In this document: positions 4,585 to 20,289 of the stretch, one piece after another
How the letters are laid out: each line of letters starts with the position of its first letter
Numbering within the stretch: position 1 is the stretch's first letter
IMG/VR virus record: IMGVR_UViG_2061766007_000262
DNA from: an uncultured virus (IMG/VR IMGVR_UViG_2061766007_000262)
Taxonomy: Duplodnaviria; Heunggongvirae; Uroviricota; Caudoviricetes
Direction: 5' to 3' (one strand)
DNA: 41,884 bases
Position numbers and translations under genes: made by a program
Notes under the pieces: generated by a model
Database searches by the model: none
What the model was told of the DNA's origin: nothing
The model's input: only the letters and a program-made list of their open reading frames with translations

Positions 4585-5100
4585 ATGCCAAGAAATAATT
4601 TAAAAAAATTAAGAACTGATACCAGAATTTCTTTAAACAAATTAGAACAATATGTTAATATTTCTAATTCAAATTTGTCTTTAATTGAAAATGATAGAAG
4701 ACCACTACGATTAAAACACATTATTGAGTTATCTGCGTTTTTCAATGTTACTGCTGATTATTTATTAGGAAAGAGTGATACTGGAATTATTGTCTATAAC
4801 GAAGCTGGCGATGAGTTTGTTTTAAATGAAAATGAATATCACGATTTGATTGGCAAAATCAAAACAACTATTGTAGATTTAAAGGTTACAACCGATAGGA
4901 TTATTCTAGATAAGGATCAGGATTCTTATGTAGCAAAAACACAGTTTAGGGTTTATAGAGAGTTTTCTGAAAGGTTAAATGAGTTTGATTTAACACCAAT
5001 TCTTACTAATAAATTAAATAATCTAATCAAAAGAATGACATCTAAAGAGTTAGAAAAAACAATTAAGTTTGTTGAAGAATATATGCTGGATAGAAATTAA
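4585..5100 (+). CDS. XRE-family phage repressor
   Basis: N-terminal HTH LKKLR...ISNSNLSLIEND...FFNVTADYLLG; position between the switch and integrase. Confidence 0.88.
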   Translation: MPRNNLKKLRTDTRISLNKLEQYVNISNSNLSLIENDRRPLRLKHIIELSAFFNVTADYLLGKSDTGIIVYNEAGDEFVLNENEYHDLIGKIKTTIVDLKVTTDRIILDKDQDSYVAKTQFRVYREFSERLNEFDLTPILTNKLNNLIKRMTSKELEKTIKFVEEYMLDRN

Positions 5101-5128
5101 AAAAAGAGCAGTGCTACCAACACTGCTC
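5099..5128 (-). terminator. Rho-independent terminator oriented for a leftward transcript
   Basis: Stem GAGCAGTG/CACTGCTC with an A-tract on its left (U-tract on the minus strand). Confidence 0.65.
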
Positions 5129-5192
5129 AAGCATATAATTGAATTTACGTTAGAAAGGGATCAATCATAAGCTAAAGAGAAAATACTCTTTA
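5099..5192 (-). ncRNA. Candidate ~90-nt antisense sRNA
   Basis: Minus-strand promoter TTGTAA-N17-TATAAT (5198-5226), 5' hairpin GCTAAAGAG/CTCTTTAGC, terminator, and 15 nt complementary to the RBS of the 1435..2112 gene. Confidence 0.55.
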
Positions 5193-5225
5193 GCCATATT
5201 ATACAAAAAATATGGAGGAATTACA

Positions 5226-6368
5226 ATGCCAAAAAATACAAGCGGTAAGTTTCACAAAGAAGATAACGGAACTTGGACTATAGATACTAAGATAAAAGTC
5301 AACGATAGATGGGTTCATTTAAAAAAGAGAGGTTTTGCCACTTTGGGTGATGCTAAAGCAAAATATCACGAAATAGAGCAAGAGCACTACAATAAACAGA
5401 TAATTAAAGATAAAAACTATTCTATTGAAAAAATATATAACGAATATATCAAAAACAGATCCTACCAAATAAACTTTACTTCTCTTGAAAAAGATATATC
5501 ACTAATTAAATGTCATATTTTGCCTTATTACAGTAAAATTGCACCAGAAGAAATATTTACTCAAGAACAAACAGAAAAATGGTATCATTTTGTATTAGAT
5601 TCAACTTTATCAAGCACAAGAAAACAACAAATTGTTGCTAAAATGAAAGATATGTTAAAGTTTGCTTATACTCACAAATATATCAATGCCGAAATGTATC
5701 AAGATTGTGATGTAATACTTTTACCAGTATCTAGCAAAAAAGAAAGTAAAGTTGAAAGAGTAATATGGACTGCCGACGAAGAAAAGCAATTTCTAGCAGC
5801 AGTTAAAGATAAAGGCAATGATAAAGATTACTTATATTTTAAAATAATACTTAATACTGGTTTAAGAATGGGCGAATATTTAGGTCTTCAAGGGAAGTGT
5901 TTTGATCACGATAAACGAATACTTAAGATAGAACAACAAGTAGTCAATAAAGATGGTGATGGTTGGATCCTGACGACAAAGTTAAAAACAAGTGAAAGCT
6001 ACAGGAATGTCGTTTTGCCTGCTGATTTATGTGAAGAAATTGAAAGCTTTATTAAAGATTTCAATATAGGTAATGACGATTTTATTATATTTTCAACTAA
6101 CAAGAAAAAACCATTAAGCAGAACCGAATTCAGAAGAAGGTTAGAAAAGTATTGTGAACTAGCTAAAGTAAGAAAATTAAATCCGCATGCGTTAAGGCAT
6201 AATCAAGCAGTTAAACTCAGCAAAGTTTGTGTAACGATGGATGATATTGAAAACGCAGCTAAAAGATTAGGACACTCACCAAGTATGTTTGCTGATACTT
6301 ATGCTAAACATCAAAACGAGGTTAAACAGAACGAATTATTAGAAAGAATGTATAGGAACAATTGTTAA
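5226..6368 (+). CDS. int: Tyrosine integrase
   Basis: N-terminal arm-binding KRGFAT motif; TGLRMGE, LKT, HALRH, LGHS, DTYAK catalytic residues. Confidence 0.95.
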   Translation: MPKNTSGKFHKEDNGTWTIDTKIKVNDRWVHLKKRGFATLGDAKAKYHEIEQEHYNKQIIKDKNYSIEKIYNEYIKNRSYQINFTSLEKDISLIKCHILPYYSKIAPEEIFTQEQTEKWYHFVLDSTLSSTRKQQIVAKMKDMLKFAYTHKYINAEMYQDCDVILLPVSSKKESKVERVIWTADEEKQFLAAVKDKGNDKDYLYFKIILNTGLRMGEYLGLQGKCFDHDKRILKIEQQVVNKDGDGWILTTKLKTSESYRNVVLPADLCEEIESFIKDFNIGNDDFIIFSTNKKKPLSRTEFRRRLEKYCELAKVRKLNPHALRHNQAVKLSKVCVTMDDIENAAKRLGHSPSMFADTYAKHQNEVKQNELLERMYRNNC

Positions 6369-6675: not shown

Positions 6676-9600
6676 TTAACTTAAAAAGTTATTGACTTTT
6701 TTGCTGCTTAGACCAAGACTTCTTAAATACCTTGATAGTTTCTCGTTATTGTCTTTGCTTCTATAACCAGCGAGATATAGTAATAGTAGTTTATCATTTC
6801 TGCTTAAACCAAGCCTATTAACATACGCAATTACAAGTTCTTTTCTTGTCTTGTTTTTGCTTTCAGTTATGCCACCAATCTTATCTAGATAATTAACAAA
6901 CCTTGAAATATTGATCCTACCATTTGAATAATAGAGCAAAGTTGATAGTTTGCTATCTGCCTTATCTAATTTGAGAACCTTTGCCTTAGCATAACTATAA
7001 TATGTATCATAGATTTTCTTGATCAATTTTGCTTTTTCTTCGCTTGTCTTATTTCTATAGTCAGTTAGTTGCATTAACTTTTCAACTTGTGCGTTAGCCT
7101 TATTATATTCGGTTTTAAACGCATTTATTTGCTCTTTAGTTAATTCTACTACATCGCCATTATCATTTGTGTAAGAAGTCATATATGCTTTTGGTAAAGC
7201 GTTATAACCGTCTTTCGTTAAGCTCAATAATTCATCTCTTACACTTTCACTGCTTTCAACTCTTGAAGCCATCACAAGTTCTAAATAACCTTTAGCTTTT
7301 CTTGTAAAGTTAGTTTGAGCAGCATCTTTATATTCTTTTAAAAGATAATTAGGACTGTAGCCTTTTATAAGTGCGTCAACTTTATAACCGTTAGGGCTAA
7401 AGTTTTTATAAGCACCAACCATATACTTATATAAATTATTAAATGGAATACCAGTTAAGTTAGCAATGATTAAAGCACCATCTCTGACAGCTTTAAGCCA
7501 ATCGCCATCATTTTCAATCGCATTCACAATATCTCTTAACACAACTACAAACTGGTTAATTACCGTTGTATCCATACCATTGATTTCTTGGTTGTAATCT
7601 ACAGCACTAATTATTGTAGAAACGTATGGCAAGTTATCAATTGTTGATTCCAACATAAGCGTTTTAATGAAGTCTTTAGCATCTTCTTCACCCCAGCTCC
7701 AGTCTTTCTTACCAAGCAATCTCTTTATTAACTCGTCAATTCCAGCGATAATCATACCACTTAGAAGAAGCGAAAGCATAAACTTTGTTGCTCTAGGTGC
7801 AATGCTTGTGTTAATTATTGTTTCTTTATCACTCTTAATGCTCTCAAGTTCTACCAACTTTTCTTTCTTATTATTAAGTTCTTCTAAAGTTTCGTCGTTT
7901 GGATCGCTTTGATATTTTCTTTCTAATTCAGCAATATCTGCTTTAGTCGTTTCTATCATCTTATTAACAGTAGGTAAAGTTGCTCTTGCAATTCTCTTTT
8001 CGTTTAATAAATTGTTGAGAATAGAAATCTTGTTTTGTAAATCAGATGAGAAGTAAGAAAGCACTTTTCTAATATAACCACCAGCACCTGAACGTGCCAT
8101 AGACTGTTTAACATCAATAGCATTTGATTGTGTGTTTGCAACTATTCTTTCAAGTATTCTAATTGGATCTTCGCCAGTTATTTTGCTTTCTTCAATTGCG
8201 GCACCATAAGCAAATGTAATAATAACAGCTTCATCCATTTTTTCCATTGGCACACCAAATATCTTTGAGAATTTATTAAGATATTCAGTTAATGCTGCTG
8301 CTTTTATTATGTCGTGATTAGACCATCTATCAGCTAACAAGCCACTTTTGCTCATTAAGTCTTGTTTGATCTTGTTATAATTTAAAACGTTGTGTGGTAT
8401 TTTAAAGAACGCCTTTAAGAATGATGCAAAATGAACTTCGTTTAATACAGTAGGCAGTGAAGCTGTTTGTTTTAAAACAACTGAAGCATTGCCATATAAA
8501 GTTGCTTGAACTAAGTTAGAAATACCTTTGCCGCTTAAAATATAATCATTTTTGCCGCCAATTCTTTCTATTAAGTAATTTATTATTGTGTAAAGTTCAT
8601 TAGATGTATTTTTAATTAAACTCTTTCTTGTTTCTGCCTTATTGTCTGAGTTCTTAGACCAACCATTGATAAACGATTCAAATCTTCTTACGCTGTCGCT
8701 CATTTCACCATATTTGGTTAGTGCGTTAACGTATGCGGCATTTCTATCAGTAAAGTTCATTCCTAATAAAGCCATGTGATAAGTCTTTTTTCTTTCTTTA
8801 TTGATAGCAGTGTTTTCAATATTGATTGTGCCATAATTTTGGCTTTCAATTGTTATATTTTTAGTATCGCTTTTATTAGACGGATAGTAATTATCATTAT
8901 AAAGTAATATTTCATAACCCTTAATATCAGCATCTTTCTTAGCTTTATAATCTCTATATTCGCCGTTATATAAGTTATCTAAAATATCTTCAGCAAAATC
9001 AGTGTATGTTTTGCCTAGTTTATTCTTAATTGTTTCAATATCGCTTTCGTTCAAAATGATATTGAACTTAGTTTTGCCATCATTATATCTATAGCCACCA
9101 TTGATTATAGTCCTATATGTTGCTTCAGTTAAAGTCATTGTATAAATATCAAGTAAAGTATCTATTGTTAATTTTAGATTTTTACCGCCAAGAGTAATTT
9201 CTACCTTTTTAGATAAATCTTTATCTTTAATATTATACTTTTCTTGTATCTCTTTGAAATCGTTGATAAACTCATATTGTTTTAATAAGTGTGCATTTCT
9301 AGAAGCGAATATATCCTCAAATAGAACTTTATTTACAGCACTATTGGATCCAAAGAAATTCTTGATTACAATATCTGGTGCTGATGTTCTATTTAATTCT
9401 CTTTGTAAGATATTTTCGTTTAAGAACACTCTTTCTTTGCTGCCATAGGTGTAATTCAATGCCCTAAGCTCTAAGTCAGCCTTATAGTTAGCTTTTTTGA
9501 CTGTTGTTTTTTCGCTATCAATCAAAACACCAAGTTCTTTATTAAGACTGCCAAGTAGTTTATAAACTGCTTCCATTGCTTGATAACTTAATGAACTACC

Positions 9601-12600
9601 TGTATTGTTTCTAGAACCTGCAACTAACTCGTTACCGACAATTAGGCTTCTGCTTGAACTACTGCTTCTATCATTAAGTAATAAACCTAATTCGTCCCTA
9701 TATCTTTCTATTAAAGATTCGCCTGTTGTTTCATCTCTTAGTGCTTGGAACCAAGAATATTTTTGCTCTAATTGATCCGCACTATAGTTAGATAAATCAT
9801 CATAAAGTGCAGTAGCAAAATCTCTTGAAATGCCAAGTTTTGATCTCGTAACAACATTTTTCCTGAATGAATTATTTATTAAATTCTTGTAGAATTGAAG
9901 TTGTGGAACGCCATCTAATTTTCTTGTTGTTCCGCTTGTCGTTTGTTTATCAAACTTATCTTTAATTTTGAAAATGTTTTGCTGTGCTTTAACTGTTGCG
10001 TAAGTAATAGCTTTTCTATTTCTAATTTCAAGTAAAGCGTCAGCCAATCTTGCTTTAAAATCATTGACAATGCTTTGAACTCTAGATGTTTTACTATTTG
10101 AAAGTAAACTTTCTGCCATTCGTTCAGCAAAATCATTGACAATATTTTCGCTATAAGTATTATTAGAGTTATAGTTTTTGAAATTGGCTGTGTCTAGCAA
10201 ATAATTACCATTCATTGCGTCAATAATTTCGCCTAATGTTTTGCCGCTTTCTTTATAGACACCATTTTCTTCAACTAATAGTTTAGCGTCAAACAATGAT
10301 TTAGCTAATTCCCTGAAATTAGTTCTAAGTTTGTCTATATCTTTTCTATTGTATTGAGTATTAAAATCTATTGTTAATTTTTCAGCAAGTTTGTTTACGT
10401 TTGTATGAACGAGCTTATAACCACTTTGTTGTGCAAAACCATCAAAGAAGTTTTGAAAATCAATTAAGAAGTCTTTAGATGTTTTATAACTTAAAACGTT
10501 TGTAGAATAAGCATTAGCATAATACTGAGATTCTCTAATTGATTTTGCCTTGTTATTTGAACTGGTTAGACTGAAATTAACTTTGTTATTATCTAGTTCG
10601 TTCCTAGATAGAACATCACTGCCCCTACTGTTAGATTCTCTGCTTTCAGAAGGTATATCATATCCTCTCTGTCTGCTTCCAGGACTTCCTGTCGTTTCTC
10701 TATTCCTAATTCTTTCATTTTCTTGTTGAAGGCTTCTTTCAACTCCTTCGTAGTCATCAATTCTATATTCTTTTCCATTGTATTCTACAACTCCTCCGTT
10801 GTTCAATATCTCTTTAACAGTGTTATCAATTAAATTTTTAAGCTTTAAACTATCGTTATCGTTGTGTATGTAATCAAGTGATACATATCGTCCTTTTTGT
10901 AAATATCTTACAAATGAACTACTTAATGATAATTCTTCGGATCCGCTTACATGTCGCCATACAACTTTATAGCCATTTTCTTTTGCCATTGAAACCCATT
11001 TAGCAATTGAAGATGCTTTTTTACCTACGAGAGGTATTGCGACGTTGTATCTATTCTTGAATAATCTATTAGACACATAGTCTTGTGCTTTTCCAACTAT
11101 TCCTTGAACAACACCAGCACCAGCACCATTGTTATAATATTTTTTAAGAGAATCAATGGTTTTAAAAATATCGTTATCGTTTTCAACAAAACCATCAACC
11201 TTAATCTTTTTATCAACACCTGTGCTTGACTTGCCAACACCTGGTAAACCAGTAACCATAAATAATTCAGGTTGATTTTCGGTAGAAACAGTTTTTTTAT
11301 TATCAATTATCTTATTAAAGGATTCATTAACAACTTTATTAAATAGAGTTTCAGACCATTGTGCCAAATCTTCTTTGTGATCCACAAGGTATTTTTCAGC
11401 GTCTTTATATGCTTGTAATTGGCTAATTCTTTCGTAATTAGGATATTCGCCAATTCCATCATTTCTAGCTTTCATATAGTCGTATATGAATTCTATTGTT
11501 GGGTTATCAAGCATATCAGCTTTGACCCAAGTTGATACGCCTTTTAAGTATGGGTTTTTGTTAATTTCAATAAGTTTCTTTTGGTTTTCTTCGGTCAATC
11601 TTGATGCTATATTTCTTAAATCACTGTTGTTGCCAATCTCTGGAATAATACTAAATTTTACAAATGAATGTTGATAATCAACTGCTTCATCATATTGATC
11701 CTTATTAAAGTGTTTAGTTTCAATGTTTTCGCCAGTATTAACCATAAAAGCAACTTGTGGCATATTGTGGTTTTCAGCAATATCATCGTGATCATATTCC
11801 ATATTGTAATCCATGATGGAAGCCGTTTTAAAACCAAAGATATTTGAATACATAGTATTTAAAGGTTGCTTAACTGACGCATAACAATCAAGTGTTTTTG
11901 CGTTATTTTTTACTATGTTTGAAATAGCTCTTAGCCAACCACTTTTACCGCTTACATTAAATACACTTATTAAATCGCCATCTTGTGTAATTGCAAAACC
12001 GCTCAGACCATCAATGCTTAAATAGTTGTTTGTATTTTCATAGTCTTCAACGCTATGTAAGTCAACTAATTCGCCATTCTTAAGATAAATTTTTGAAATT
12101 TCAAATATATCATGGAAGGTTTGTGCATCTACATCTTGATAGATACTATAATCATCGTTAAGCTTTAATAGCCCATAACCATAGCTAGAGATGCTGCTTT
12201 TGGATCTGAGAAAGTCTTTAAAAGTTGTGGAAAGTCTTTTTCGTAAAGTTTCATCAATCTCTTTGCTTCCTTGATGGAACAATTGTTGTTCTTGATTAGT
12301 GATTCTTCTACTTTCTTCTTGAATTCTTCTAAACTCATTTTCTACCTCTCTTATATCAATTTCATTATAATTTGGTGCTTCCAATTTGTCAATATTTTTA
12401 TTATTTTTTTCATATTTGATAATATTTTGACTATTTTTATTATTTTTTGAATCCAAACTCATTTTAATACTTGGATTACTTGTAGGTTTCTTATTATCAA
12501 TAGATTTAATTTGGTTAGACTCAAAAGCAATGTAAACTTTACCATAATTGTTCGTGTCTAATTCTGCACCATCATAACCTGTTATTTTGGTTATTGCTTC

Positions 12601-15237
12601 ATTAAACAAACTAACATCGTTAGCAGTTGATTGCAAATATTCAATTACTTCATAGTCAGTCTTACATTCTTGTTTAATTGCTTTGACAGCATTGTCTAAA
12701 TCAATTTTTTGTAATTTTTCTATTGAACTAACTAATTGCTTTATTTGGCTATCACTTATTGTTAATTTCTCTGTGTTAATAGGTTTAGTGATGTTAGCAT
12801 ACCCCCTTATGATGTTATCTCCACTTTGATAAGCCATATCATAAGATGTTGCTAAATATATACCCTTTATTTTAGCCTGAGTATTTTCGCCAATTTTCTT
12901 CTTATCAAATGTTGTAAACTTTGCATTACTGCCATGATACACAACTAATAAGTTTCCGTTTTCATCACGAACTTTACTATCTTTAAAATATTCTTGTTGT
13001 TCTTTTGATAGTTTGTTACCATCGGAATCAGTCATTGATAAAGAAAAACTAGCAGAATAATTTGGCGACCCAGTATTTTTTTTGTTATAATTATCAACTT
13101 CATTAGCTTGTGCTTTAATATTATCAAGAGCTAAATCAGCTAATTGCGTTTCTACAAGGTTTGTTAATGCTTTGATATAAGTTTTTTCAGATTTAACAAT
13201 GTCACCACGACCATTTTGAATTCTTTTAAATACAGATTCAAGATAGTGTTTTAGCTTAAATAAAGTAGGTCTATATGCTATGTCTTTTATAAGCTTTTTT
13301 GCGTCTGTAAAATTCTCCAACGTAAAAGCAAGAGTTTCGCTTTCTAGCAGTTCAGGGCTTATGGTTTTATTTCCTGAACCATTATCTGTGCCATATAATT
13401 CCCTTATATAATTTTCAGTGTTTTCCCATTGTGTTGGGTTTGCTTTTTTGATAACATCCGAAACCGCTTTTCTTAACTCAGGGTTTTGGTCAAAGAAACC
13501 ATGACTTAAATTTTCATGAACATATTTATTGAATAACTTATCAGAAAACTCTGAGCTTATAAAAGTTCTATTTCCAACAGTAAAAGCAGCGACACTAAAG
13601 TCGTTATTTTTAAATTTTTGTTTTTCTTCTTCTGTTAATTTTAGATTGTATTGTTTTTCAAATTCATCAACATTTTTTATTTCATTTTCAGTAATGATAT
13701 GTGTATTAAATTCTAAGCCAGTTGTTTTTCTAATTCCAGCATCAAACTCGCTTGCTAGGTTTTGTAAATTTGAATTTTGAATAGTTGTTTTTATGTGATT
13801 AAAAGTATTTTCGCCTTGTTCAGATTTCCAATAATCAACAGCAGTTTTGCCTTTAAAAAGCATGTTCATAAGGTTGTTGAAATGAACTGGATCATCTTCT
13901 CTGAACTTATCAAGATTTTCACAAAGCTCTTGCATTTCTTGTGCGTTTTTTTCGCCCAATTTTTGTAATCGCTTGTTTCTTGTTTCTTCGCTGATGTTCT
14001 TATTAAGCATTAGTTTATTGTATGCTTCTTGATTTTGGTAAATTTCGCCTATATTACCAAAGAATTGGTAACCTTCTGCACCAAGTTTATTATAAACTAT
14101 TGCGGTTTCGCCACCAGACATAATGCCGCCTGAAACAGCACCACCTGCGAAAGATAAGCCGACTTGTTTCCAATACGCAGGATCGGTGTAAATAAATCTA
14201 CCATTTTCACCTTTTAGAGCGTCTTCGCCTTCAACAATTGTGCTTGCCCAAGGTGCTAAGATCTCACTAAATACTTCTTCTGCACCTTCTTCAAACATTG
14301 ATTTAAGTATTTCTTTGCCTATACCCTTTTTAGTCGCACTTGCAAATGCTTTAGAACCATATTTAAGACCATTTACATTAGGTGTAAATTCGCCAATTAC
14401 TTTATTTAAGCCAGTAGCTTTGGAAATACCATTAAGTATTTTACCTGTTACAAGTTCTGAAGCAACTTCTATAGCAGCATTAGCAGTTCCGTAAGCAGCA
14501 GATTTGCCTACATCATCAGTTTTCTTATATGTTTCATTATAACCAGTTGCAAAAGATCCAGTTCCCATTACGCCTAAAGATACTGCTTGTGCAGCAGTGC
14601 TTGAACCACCAGTTAAAACACCAGCTATAATTGATGGAAGCATAAAACCAATGCTTTCTTCTACGCCAGTCATAAAGTTATTTACGCCTTGTGCTTCACT
14701 TAACCAGTTTGATTCATTAACAATTTTGTCTAAATATTCTTTTGATTCTTCAATACTATTGAATGATTGAACCCAATTTTCAAAATCAAGAGTTGGTATT
14801 GTTCCTAGAACATTTATTGCATTTGTTCCATAAGTAACCCAGTCATAATCTCTTGCTTCTCTTGCCCATTCTGCATCATGACCGCTGCTAGCGTCCACAA
14901 TATTAAAAAAGAGATCGCCAAGCGAATCAAAGAAATTTAATAAACCCCTTGTTACATTTATGCCAGCTGCTGCTATAGTATCAGAAGTTCTTTTCCAGTA
15001 GTCCATAACACCTTGTGGTGTATTATCTTTTTCTTCAGTAGGATCCGCTGTGTTTCTTGTTTCTAAATCAGTCTTAATCTTAGCTAGGCTGGTTAAATCA
15101 TAAGCGTTTATGTAATCGCTATAATCGTTTGTGTAATCAATATCATTAGGATTAACGAAAGAGTCATAACTAGATGACTCTCTTTTTCTCTGTAACATAT
15201 CTCTTAGGTATTTAAGTTGTTCTTGTGAATTAGCCAT
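6676..15237 (-). CDS. Giant polyvalent virion/ejection-type protein with metallopeptidase-like, ART-like, GNAT-like and zeta-like P-loop kinase modules
   Basis: 2853 aa; Gly/Ala-rich hydrophobic N-terminal helices; HENLSH (13501-13518); VYHGS..GIYLA..GYDG..AFESNQIKS; GFAITQDGDLISVF..TLDCY..FGFK; GLPGVGKS (11227-11250). Confidence 0.8.
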   Translation of the reverse strand: MANSQEQLKYLRDMLQRKRESSSYDSFVNPNDIDYTNDYSDYINAYDLTSLAKIKTDLETRNTADPTEEKDNTPQGVMDYWKRTSDTIAAAGINVTRGLLNFFDSLGDLFFNIVDASSGHDAEWAREARDYDWVTYGTNAINVLGTIPTLDFENWVQSFNSIEESKEYLDKIVNESNWLSEAQGVNNFMTGVEESIGFMLPSIIAGVLTGGSSTAAQAVSLGVMGTGSFATGYNETYKKTDDVGKSAAYGTANAAIEVASELVTGKILNGISKATGLNKVIGEFTPNVNGLKYGSKAFASATKKGIGKEILKSMFEEGAEEVFSEILAPWASTIVEGEDALKGENGRFIYTDPAYWKQVGLSFAGGAVSGGIMSGGETAIVYNKLGAEGYQFFGNIGEIYQNQEAYNKLMLNKNISEETRNKRLQKLGEKNAQEMQELCENLDKFREDDPVHFNNLMNMLFKGKTAVDYWKSEQGENTFNHIKTTIQNSNLQNLASEFDAGIRKTTGLEFNTHIITENEIKNVDEFEKQYNLKLTEEEKQKFKNNDFSVAAFTVGNRTFISSEFSDKLFNKYVHENLSHGFFDQNPELRKAVSDVIKKANPTQWENTENYIRELYGTDNGSGNKTISPELLESETLAFTLENFTDAKKLIKDIAYRPTLFKLKHYLESVFKRIQNGRGDIVKSEKTYIKALTNLVETQLADLALDNIKAQANEVDNYNKKNTGSPNYSASFSLSMTDSDGNKLSKEQQEYFKDSKVRDENGNLLVVYHGSNAKFTTFDKKKIGENTQAKIKGIYLATSYDMAYQSGDNIIRGYANITKPINTEKLTISDSQIKQLVSSIEKLQKIDLDNAVKAIKQECKTDYEVIEYLQSTANDVSLFNEAITKITGYDGAELDTNNYGKVYIAFESNQIKSIDNKKPTSNPSIKMSLDSKNNKNSQNIIKYEKNNKNIDKLEAPNYNEIDIREVENEFRRIQEESRRITNQEQQLFHQGSKEIDETLRKRLSTTFKDFLRSKSSISSYGYGLLKLNDDYSIYQDVDAQTFHDIFEISKIYLKNGELVDLHSVEDYENTNNYLSIDGLSGFAITQDGDLISVFNVSGKSGWLRAISNIVKNNAKTLDCYASVKQPLNTMYSNIFGFKTASIMDYNMEYDHDDIAENHNMPQVAFMVNTGENIETKHFNKDQYDEAVDYQHSFVKFSIIPEIGNNSDLRNIASRLTEENQKKLIEINKNPYLKGVSTWVKADMLDNPTIEFIYDYMKARNDGIGEYPNYERISQLQAYKDAEKYLVDHKEDLAQWSETLFNKVVNESFNKIIDNKKTVSTENQPELFMVTGLPGVGKSSTGVDKKIKVDGFVENDNDIFKTIDSLKKYYNNGAGAGVVQGIVGKAQDYVSNRLFKNRYNVAIPLVGKKASSIAKWVSMAKENGYKVVWRHVSGSEELSLSSSFVRYLQKGRYVSLDYIHNDNDSLKLKNLIDNTVKEILNNGGVVEYNGKEYRIDDYEGVERSLQQENERIRNRETTGSPGSRQRGYDIPSESRESNSRGSDVLSRNELDNNKVNFSLTSSNNKAKSIRESQYYANAYSTNVLSYKTSKDFLIDFQNFFDGFAQQSGYKLVHTNVNKLAEKLTIDFNTQYNRKDIDKLRTNFRELAKSLFDAKLLVEENGVYKESGKTLGEIIDAMNGNYLLDTANFKNYNSNNTYSENIVNDFAERMAESLLSNSKTSRVQSIVNDFKARLADALLEIRNRKAITYATVKAQQNIFKIKDKFDKQTTSGTTRKLDGVPQLQFYKNLINNSFRKNVVTRSKLGISRDFATALYDDLSNYSADQLEQKYSWFQALRDETTGESLIERYRDELGLLLNDRSSSSSRSLIVGNELVAGSRNNTGSSLSYQAMEAVYKLLGSLNKELGVLIDSEKTTVKKANYKADLELRALNYTYGSKERVFLNENILQRELNRTSAPDIVIKNFFGSNSAVNKVLFEDIFASRNAHLLKQYEFINDFKEIQEKYNIKDKDLSKKVEITLGGKNLKLTIDTLLDIYTMTLTEATYRTIINGGYRYNDGKTKFNIILNESDIETIKNKLGKTYTDFAEDILDNLYNGEYRDYKAKKDADIKGYEILLYNDNYYPSNKSDTKNITIESQNYGTINIENTAINKERKKTYHMALLGMNFTDRNAAYVNALTKYGEMSDSVRRFESFINGWSKNSDNKAETRKSLIKNTSNELYTIINYLIERIGGKNDYILSGKGISNLVQATLYGNASVVLKQTASLPTVLNEVHFASFLKAFFKIPHNVLNYNKIKQDLMSKSGLLADRWSNHDIIKAAALTEYLNKFSKIFGVPMEKMDEAVIITFAYGAAIEESKITGEDPIRILERIVANTQSNAIDVKQSMARSGAGGYIRKVLSYFSSDLQNKISILNNLLNEKRIARATLPTVNKMIETTKADIAELERKYQSDPNDETLEELNNKKEKLVELESIKSDKETIINTSIAPRATKFMLSLLLSGMIIAGIDELIKRLLGKKDWSWGEEDAKDFIKTLMLESTIDNLPYVSTIISAVDYNQEINGMDTTVINQFVVVLRDIVNAIENDGDWLKAVRDGALIIANLTGIPFNNLYKYMVGAYKNFSPNGYKVDALIKGYSPNYLLKEYKDAAQTNFTRKAKGYLELVMASRVESSESVRDELLSLTKDGYNALPKAYMTSYTNDNGDVVELTKEQINAFKTEYNKANAQVEKLMQLTDYRNKTSEEKAKLIKKIYDTYYSYAKAKVLKLDKADSKLSTLLYYSNGRINISRFVNYLDKIGGITESKNKTRKELVIAYVNRLGLSRNDKLLLLYLAGYRSKDNNEKLSRYLRSLGLSSKKVNNFLS
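10593..10778 (-). CDS. Nested +1-frame small helical ORF after the zeta-like domain (candidate antitoxin)
   Basis: 61 aa (54 from ATG 10757); GGAGGAG at 10791-10797; host frame becomes R/S/G/E-rich over this interval. Confidence 0.55.
   Translation of the reverse strand: MEKNIELMTTKELKEAFNKKMKELGIEKRQEVLEADREDMIYLLKAENLTVGAVMFYLGTN
12165..12338 (-). CDS. Nested +1-frame 57-aa ORF before the GNAT-like domain (candidate antitoxin/immunity)
   Basis: MSLEEFKKKVEESLIKNNNCSIKEAKRLMKLYEKDFPQLLKTFSDPKAASLAMVMGY; RBS GAGAGGT 5 nt before ATG; consensus promoter directly upstream. Confidence 0.75.
   Translation of the reverse strand: MSLEEFKKKVEESLIKNNNCSIKEAKRLMKLYEKDFPQLLKTFSDPKAASLAMVMGY
12364..12394 (-). 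promoter_or_regulatory. Internal consensus sigma70 promoter with operator-like site inside the giant ORF
   Basis: TTGACA (12392-12387) N17 TATAAT (12369-12364) with an A-rich UP-like tract; 19 bp identical to 4528-4546. Confidence 0.8.
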
Positions 15238-19710: not shown

Positions 19711-20289
19711 CTATTCTCCTTTAATTTGATTATCATCTAACCAATTATAAATAAATGTTAAAATTTCATTAGTTGTAATTCCAAAATCACTTAAACCTTT
19801 TGGAACTTTAGTCATTTGTTTTTTACATATATTATTTATTAAGTTTATATCGCAATTCATACTAACTTGTATTGCTTCGTAAGACCATTTAAAATCTGGC
19901 GATAAATTATAACTATGACCACTGCATACTTTATAACCATCAATTAAAATATCATTATGATTTAATTCAACGTTTAAACCTTTTTCTTTTAAGAAATTAG
20001 CTATATCTTGAAGCATAGTAGATAGCATAAATTTATGATATTTTTGATTATTATAAATCCACACTAATGCTATATTGCCTTCAAAATGAACGATAGTCCC
20101 ACCATCTCTATTCATATTATAATATGGTATATTATGCTGATCACAGTATTCTGTATTAACATCATTTTCCCAACCAAATGAAACTTCGGTTTGTTGTGAG
20201 ATACCTATTTCAAAATGTTCTATTCTATTTTGAATATAATATGATTGTTTGTCATACCAACTTTTTATTGTAGTTTTTAATTCTTCCAT
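19711..20289 (-). CDS. Lipoate-protein ligase (BPL/LplA/LipB family)-like catalytic core
   Basis: SFG...VNTEYC..HNIP...RDGGTIVHFEGNI and NDILIDGYKVCSG resemble LplA RRxSGGGxVxHDxGN and NDIxxxGxKxxG motifs. Confidence 0.7.
   Translation of the reverse strand: MEELKTTIKSWYDKQSYYIQNRIEHFEIGISQQTEVSFGWENDVNTEYCDQHNIPYYNMNRDGGTIVHFEGNIALVWIYNNQKYHKFMLSTMLQDIANFLKEKGLNVELNHNDILIDGYKVCSGHSYNLSPDFKWSYEAIQVSMNCDINLINNICKKQMTKVPKGLSDFGITTNEILTFIYNWLDDNQIKGE

Follow-up and report, generated by a model that had tools for sequence, protein, structure and literature searches.

A small gene read out of frame behind the zeta-like kinase domain of a phage polyvalent protein: a putative kinase inhibitor with orphan copies in bacterial chromosomes

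Directly behind a zeta-like kinase domain in a giant phage gene, a second and much shorter gene is very probably encoded in another reading frame of the same DNA. This nested gene, ORF2 (10593..10778, minus strand; 61 aa, in +1 relative to the host gene), specifies a small, all-helical protein, a putative kinase inhibitor, that is separately started, selected and foldable, accompanies its kinase clade and is retained by bacteria on its own. We consider the arrangement to be a new variant of toxin–immunity organisation, with ORF2 probably acting as the putative antidote of the adjacent kinase. The orphan copies of the ORF2 family among bacterial housekeeping genes are a new observation, and no other part of the finding is as surprising or as open to testing.

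THE WINDOW AND ITS POLYVALENT GENE

The stretch of DNA analysed (the window; 41,884 nucleotides of an uncultured virus, IMGVR_UViG_2061766007_000262) is a temperate phage or prophage, and its phage hallmark genes include terminase, portal, major head protein, integrase, an HTH protein, RecT and YqaJ. A Lipoyl protein ligase A/B catalytic domain is also encoded in the late region (19711-20289). The host gene of ORF2 is the last large one in the virion gene block, ahead of the integrase, and encodes a polyvalent protein of 2853 aa (6676..15237, minus strand; ORF 15237-6676, 2853 codons). Its domains are ART-PolyVal (residues 758-919), an unnamed domain (~1030-1200) and a P-loop kinase module of the Zeta/PezT fold (~residues 1200-1498; 10744..11640, minus strand), in which Pfam Zeta_toxin is found at 1311-1459. 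Polyvalent proteins have been described as multi-domain phage cargo, with a zeta-like kinase named as a component (PMC5512222). The host gene shares with them the multi-domain cargo protein, ART-PolyVal and the zeta-like kinase; it differs in its nested gene, as neither nested genes nor domain-specific antidotes are mentioned in parts of PMC5512222 that touch on nesting, antitoxin or immunity. The unnamed domain (window ~11640-12150), which lies between a further nested frame, ORF1, and the kinase, is common to two other loci (L030, L032) and, weakly, to P0006; its only match is a weak one among PHROG families (phrog_2563), and it is a candidate second toxin domain.

POSITION AND SIGNALS OF ORF2

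ORF2 runs on the minus strand from ATG 10778 to TAG 10593. As originally predicted, its frame is +1, here relative to the ORF 15237-6676 (2853 codons) and shared with ORF1 (12338-12165), and a Shine–Dalgarno-like GGAGGAG (10791..10797, minus strand) stands 12 nt upstream of ATG 10778. Two further proposals fared less well: the start that is conserved is ATG 10778 rather than the second ATG at 10757, and the promoter-like TTGAAC-18-TACAAT (10777..10806, minus strand) is present but no more frequent than chance would give (3 sites, with 3.5 expected). The R/S/G/E-rich character of the host frame over ORF2 was confirmed. AlphaFold2 predicts the kinase fold up to ~residue 1498 and then pLDDT <50 for residues 1499-1574, a predicted disordered linker (10516..10743, minus strand) that is mostly a by-product reading of ORF2. 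Only the first ~12 codons of ORF2 overlap the last strands of the kinase, so this stretch is conserved in both frames.

An open +1 frame is in itself weak evidence, since a +1 stop can arise only where the host frame has a Leu, Ile, Val or Met codon, and the ORF2 frame stays open in 22% of 20,000 synonymous recodings of the host residues. Along the whole host gene, five +1 stretches of at least 55 codons are open, against a null mean of 2.3. The case for ORF2 as a gene rests on its homologues.

CONSERVATION, SELECTION AND FOLD

Conservation of the frame in homologous modules, one of the checks attached to the original prediction, was found throughout the close relatives. Six distinct embedded kinases of the clade are available with DNA (the window, L001, L030, L031, L032 and L036; L002, L003, L027 and L028 are duplicates of L001 and were left out of the count), and all six carry an ATG-started +1 ORF. 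These ORFs are 61-76 aa long and start 152-157 codons past Walker A, with an SD-like purine tract upstream in every case. When zeta-like modules are taken more broadly, a +1 ORF of at least 45 aa with SD and ATG starts 140-185 codons past Walker A, an interval chosen after a first look at the data, in 15 of 16 embedded loci (12 of 13 without near-duplicates); L011 is the sole miss. The background of such ORFs is 0.022 per interval, and there are none in +2. The survey, confined to zeta-like kinase modules, comprised 32 loci (16 embedded, 10 free-standing and 6 unscored, in which the motif is absent).

Selection acts on the nested frame. For three pairs compared, the nested frame has pN/pS of 0.56, 0.34 and 0.39, against 0.68, 0.71 and 1.79 for the host frame; the pooled values are 0.42 and 0.98, with two of the three pairs including an orphan, in which a neutral host frame is to be expected. 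Between two embedded copies (L001 and L032), the nested proteins share 39% identity (E 1e-9), whereas the host frame gives E 0.13. Between the window and L030, 12 of 29 changes in the nested frame, 3 of 26 in the host frame and 31 of 74 in the kinase control are conservative; under a permutation null both frames of this pair are constrained (P 0.010 and 0.011), and the difference between them has P 0.52. The same null favours the nested frame in the pair L031/L040 (0/1000, against P 0.29 for the host frame).

AlphaFold2 models ORF2, from six sequences, as five short helices with pLDDT 89.5 and pTM 0.76. Homologues on other contigs (P0159-P0165) have been called as genes by gene callers; the Atlas matches of P0163 at 0.75-0.76 were left out of the evidence. 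In P0020, of which there is the protein sequence only, the linker is retained behind an unrelated N-terminus. Searches with the single ORF2 sequence gave no matches, nor did viral scans with two other members of the family. P0161, P0162 and L030:4554-4739 have near-identical N-terminal halves and different C-terminal helices, a pattern that, judged by sequence, is as expected for a diversifying specificity segment.

THE KINASE DOMAIN AND ITS PAIRING WITH ORF2

The best fold matches of the kinase domain are PezT and zeta (E 6e-9 and 7e-9), and Pnkp1 is its second sequence match. The domain keeps the Walker A Lys1336 and Asp1356, the equivalent of the zeta catalytic Asp67. The UNAG-binding residues Thr118 and Arg120 of zeta align to Val (Val1404) and Lys, respectively, and a Thr-to-Val change abolishes the toxicity of PezT, as reported in PMC3062530. 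Given the Val at zeta Thr118, the substrate of this kinase may be other than UNAG, and we infer its toxicity. A tblastn search with the kinase against 50,697 phage records gave no match.

The embedded ORF2 family lies directly behind this kinase clade in all six loci, and the nested ORFs at the same offset behind distant kinases look different. When linkers were scored with the ORF2 profile, those of five distant kinases gave lower values (z from -0.2 to 2.3) than four close linkers with no near relative in the profile, which gave 1.8, 2.2, 3.5 and 5.3 (P0001, in which the motif was missed, was left out). ORF2 is a small gene immediately downstream of a toxin-like domain, and the two are inherited together in all 6 close loci and in 15 of 16 embedded ones, as in toxin–immunity pairs.

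Free-standing kinases of the clade end approximately where ORF2 begins. Past the stop, an SD-led gene of 61-74 aa is present in five of the ten scored loci. The small gene behind the free-standing kinase of L029 has only a faint likeness to ORF2 (E 0.0025-0.0028, probability 11-12%). At L029, in a phage head region, the kinase and small gene are followed by a small HD-type hydrolase with a weak RelA/SpoT match (4992-5423). In L005, L010 and L015, the long gene that follows a free-standing zeta-like kinase begins in +1 over the end of the kinase, and in L007 it begins in frame past the kinase stop; an acidic segment at the N-terminus is common to these four long genes and may be an immunity domain that has become fused to the protein that follows. 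A polyvalent piece of 670 codons, comprising ORF1, the unnamed domain, the kinase and ORF2, lies among non-phage genes in G001 (L030 / L049) and is either a cargo-gene relic or an islet.

ORPHAN COPIES IN BACTERIAL CHROMOSOMES

Matches to the ORF2 profile, four embedded copies included, were found in 5 of 401 genomes in the sample of one order and in 2 of 158 and 3 of 106 in two others. Copies without an upstream kinase, and thus without the toxin, amount to five intact loci (L040, L042, L043, L044 and L055) and two frameshifted ones (L052, which belongs to the window's own ORF2 subfamily, and L056) in genomes that may be incomplete. Housekeeping neighbours were confirmed for L040, L042, L043, L055 and L052; the neighbours of the orphans include glycerate kinase, aldolase, oligoendopeptidase, DegV and HypB. 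In six of the seven orphan genomes there is no kinase match at E 1e-12, the assemblies being small and probably incomplete, and the seventh, G002, also carries the embedded copy L031. Scanning upstream of six orphan loci revealed no promoter-like site scoring 10/12 or better. Three further profile searches yielded only L060 and L061, which are false matches inside unrelated ORFs of 431 and 685 codons.

The host frame is stopped inside the ORF2 gene in L042 and L043, and just upstream of it in L040 and L044. DNA homology between the embedded L031 and the orphan L040 is limited to the segment from ~35 nt before the ATG through a few nt beyond the stop. In L042 and L044, what is left of the host frame matches the linkers that follow the P0013 and P0016 kinases at 59-60%, which traces both orphans to nested genes linked to a kinase. 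A short kinase tail remains in L056, and long open host-frame relics remain in L042 and L055. An ORF1 homologue (probability 95%) comes directly after L042; L055 is followed by a gene homologous to a different nested gene of L032 (52% identity).

By analogy, this is the pattern of orphan immunity genes. The orphan copies suggest that ORF2 is an antidote of the kinase, and hosts may be borrowing the gene for protection. Our literature search, which covered few subscription journals and no supplements, found no report of out-of-frame antidote genes in polyvalent proteins or of their orphans. A possible anti-phage defence is suggested by the orphans, one that would escape gene callers and defence-system finders; such copies also open a general route to the functions of genes nested in giant phage genes. 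In G002, 4 kb from L040, a second, split zeta-like gene is followed by an unrelated acidic gene of 106 aa (L039 / L046:9756-11087).

ORF2 AS A PROPOSED NESTED KINASE INHIBITOR

On balance, we favour the reading that ORF2 is a putative kinase inhibitor kept with its domain by read-through; position, clade-specific pairing and the orphan copies lend the antidote role indirect support. ORF2 would be translated on its own into a small helical protein, an inhibitor of the zeta-like kinase domain encoded just upstream, and the two would form a toxin–immunity pair inside one giant virion-cargo gene. The present layout would have resulted from the entry of a 'kinase, then small gene' cassette into a polyvalent gene with loss of the kinase stop; by sequence comparison, direct homology to a free small gene (L029) is only faint. 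By read-through, the host frame would cross the small gene as a floppy linker, and both would move together in domain shuffling. During late expression, ORF2 would be made from the same mRNA and silence the kinase in the producing cell, the packaged protein would reach the next cell without ORF2, and bacteria holding ORF2 alone would be protected from the incoming kinase.

It is very improbable that ORF2 is not a gene at all, a shadow frame left open by chance over a hydrophilic linker short of Leu, Ile, Val and Met codons. The probability of an open frame given the host residues (0.22), the long SD spacing and the chance-level promoter fit such a shadow, but this explanation is largely refuted by the selection on the nested frame, the conserved SD, start and length, the confident fold, the gene-called homologues P0159-P0165 and the intact copies in which the host frame is stopped. 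It is also unlikely, though by a far smaller measure, that ORF2, though a real gene, does something else (as a factor in superinfection exclusion or DNA entry, a cargo chaperone or packaging adaptor, or a regulator), its link to the kinase being shared history and hosts keeping it for that other benefit. Orphan retention would fit any phage-blocking protein, the kinase may be non-toxic given its Val at zeta Thr118, and the best fold matches of ORF2 are non-significant helical bundles, T4 Spackle among them (Z 4.3, rmsd 2.7, 58 aligned). A Z of 4.3 is, however, the background level for helical models, and the Spackle and Rho N-terminal matches were rejected as such; the constant place of the family behind one kinase clade, with other nested ORFs behind distant kinases, also speaks against a merely historical link.

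Somewhat more credible, yet still short of an even chance, is the possibility that ORF2 is an antidote in the phage gene and that its chromosomal copies are neutral leftovers of decayed prophages from which the toxic part was deleted, an explanation that overlaps the favoured one. Frameshifts in two of the seven orphans are what neutral relics would show; the kinase tail of L056, the long relics of L042 and L055 and the existence of kinase-bearing relics without phage neighbours (L030) point the same way. Against neutrality stand the homology boundaries of L040, which run from SD to stop, the occurrence in tandem of unlike nested genes that lack the domains they belong with, and the pN/pS of 0.34 and 0.39 in embedded–orphan pairs, some of whose divergence may predate capture.

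If ORF2 is indeed a nested kinase inhibitor, an out-of-frame antidote would explain how the producing cell survives the toxin-like enzymes of polyvalent virion proteins, and the R/S/G/E-rich linkers of these proteins would be shadows of unannotated genes. More tentatively, the +1-frame linkers of polyvalent cargo genes could hide domain-specific antidotes in general, which bacteria would collect singly or in tandem as an acquired defence against injected cargo.

COMPARISON WITH KNOWN SYSTEMS

In epsilon/zeta systems, the epsilon gene precedes zeta and is a separate gene in a bicistronic operon. ORF2, which had been proposed to be epsilon-like, comes after its kinase and is nested in +1. No epsilon or PezA chain was found among PDB sequence matches to E 10 (profiles A6 and A11), and no Pfam family scored above cut-off for 12 members of the ORF2 family. 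Fold searches with ORF2 gave no significant match (best Z 5.0), and epsilon was not among the matches listed, which do not exhaust the families. With epsilon/zeta and PezAT (PMC3062530; 1GVN, 2P5T), the system described here shares the kinase fold, the P-loop Lys, the catalytic Asp and an adjoining gene for a small helical protein; it differs in that the kinase forms part of a phage protein of 2853 aa and the partner is nested out of frame after the kinase, in the lack of an epsilon sequence match or of epsilon among the fold matches listed, and in the Val at Thr118, which suggests another substrate. Membership of ORF2 in the epsilon family is not supported, given the lack of a sequence match, the different gene order and the absence of epsilon from the listed fold matches.

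Orphan immunity genes and acquired interbacterial defence arrays consist of immunity genes retained without their toxin, sometimes in tandem, and the known cases guard against toxins of other bacteria. The source of the ORF2 orphans, in contrast, is a phage cargo gene, from whose overlapping frame they were cut. In organisation, the ORF2 arrangement putatively works like a toxin–immunity pair. For MuF polymorphic toxins, a small ORF follows 89.4% of 191 toxin genes (PMC5576092); as described there, a virion-associated toxin domain of temperate phages is likewise followed by a small ORF read as immunity, but the toxin is C-terminal and the small ORF separate, whereas here the toxin-like domain is internal and the host gene runs on through the small one in a different frame. 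Among systems that place an antitoxin within a toxin gene, Rpn comes closest: its antitoxin is made from an internal start inside the toxin's own gene (bioRxiv 10.1101/2023.05.02.539157). According to the same preprint, RpnS is the same-frame C-terminal part of the long protein and serves host defence; ORF2 is out of frame, an unrelated protein and on the phage side.

ORF1 AND OTHER NESTED READING FRAMES

The first nested frame of the window, ORF1 (12165..12338, minus strand; 57 aa, +1 frame), represents a separate family. A resemblance between ORF1 and ORF2, noted by eye in the original prediction, did not hold up: BLASTP gave no alignment, and profile–profile comparison gave a probability of 0.5% (E 0.13). 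The suggestion that nested genes are a recurring design was borne out by ORF1 homologues in L030 and L032 and by further SD-led +1 ORFs in L032, L036 and L004. The homologues of ORF1 (L030:3015-3197, L032:1731-1931 and L042:1192-1371 on the minus strand) share 52-56% identity, and ORF1 precedes the unnamed domain in all three embedded cases despite differing upstream neighbours. Because ORF1 precedes rather than follows its linked domain, it is no general rule that a nested gene is the antidote of the upstream domain. Other SD-led or small +1 ORFs, which belong to other families, sit inside or beside polyvalent genes and orphan loci (L032:1512-1685, L036:1022-1180, L004, L043:1581-1739 on the minus strand and L030:4909-5109); L032 holds three nested ORFs within 1252 codons.
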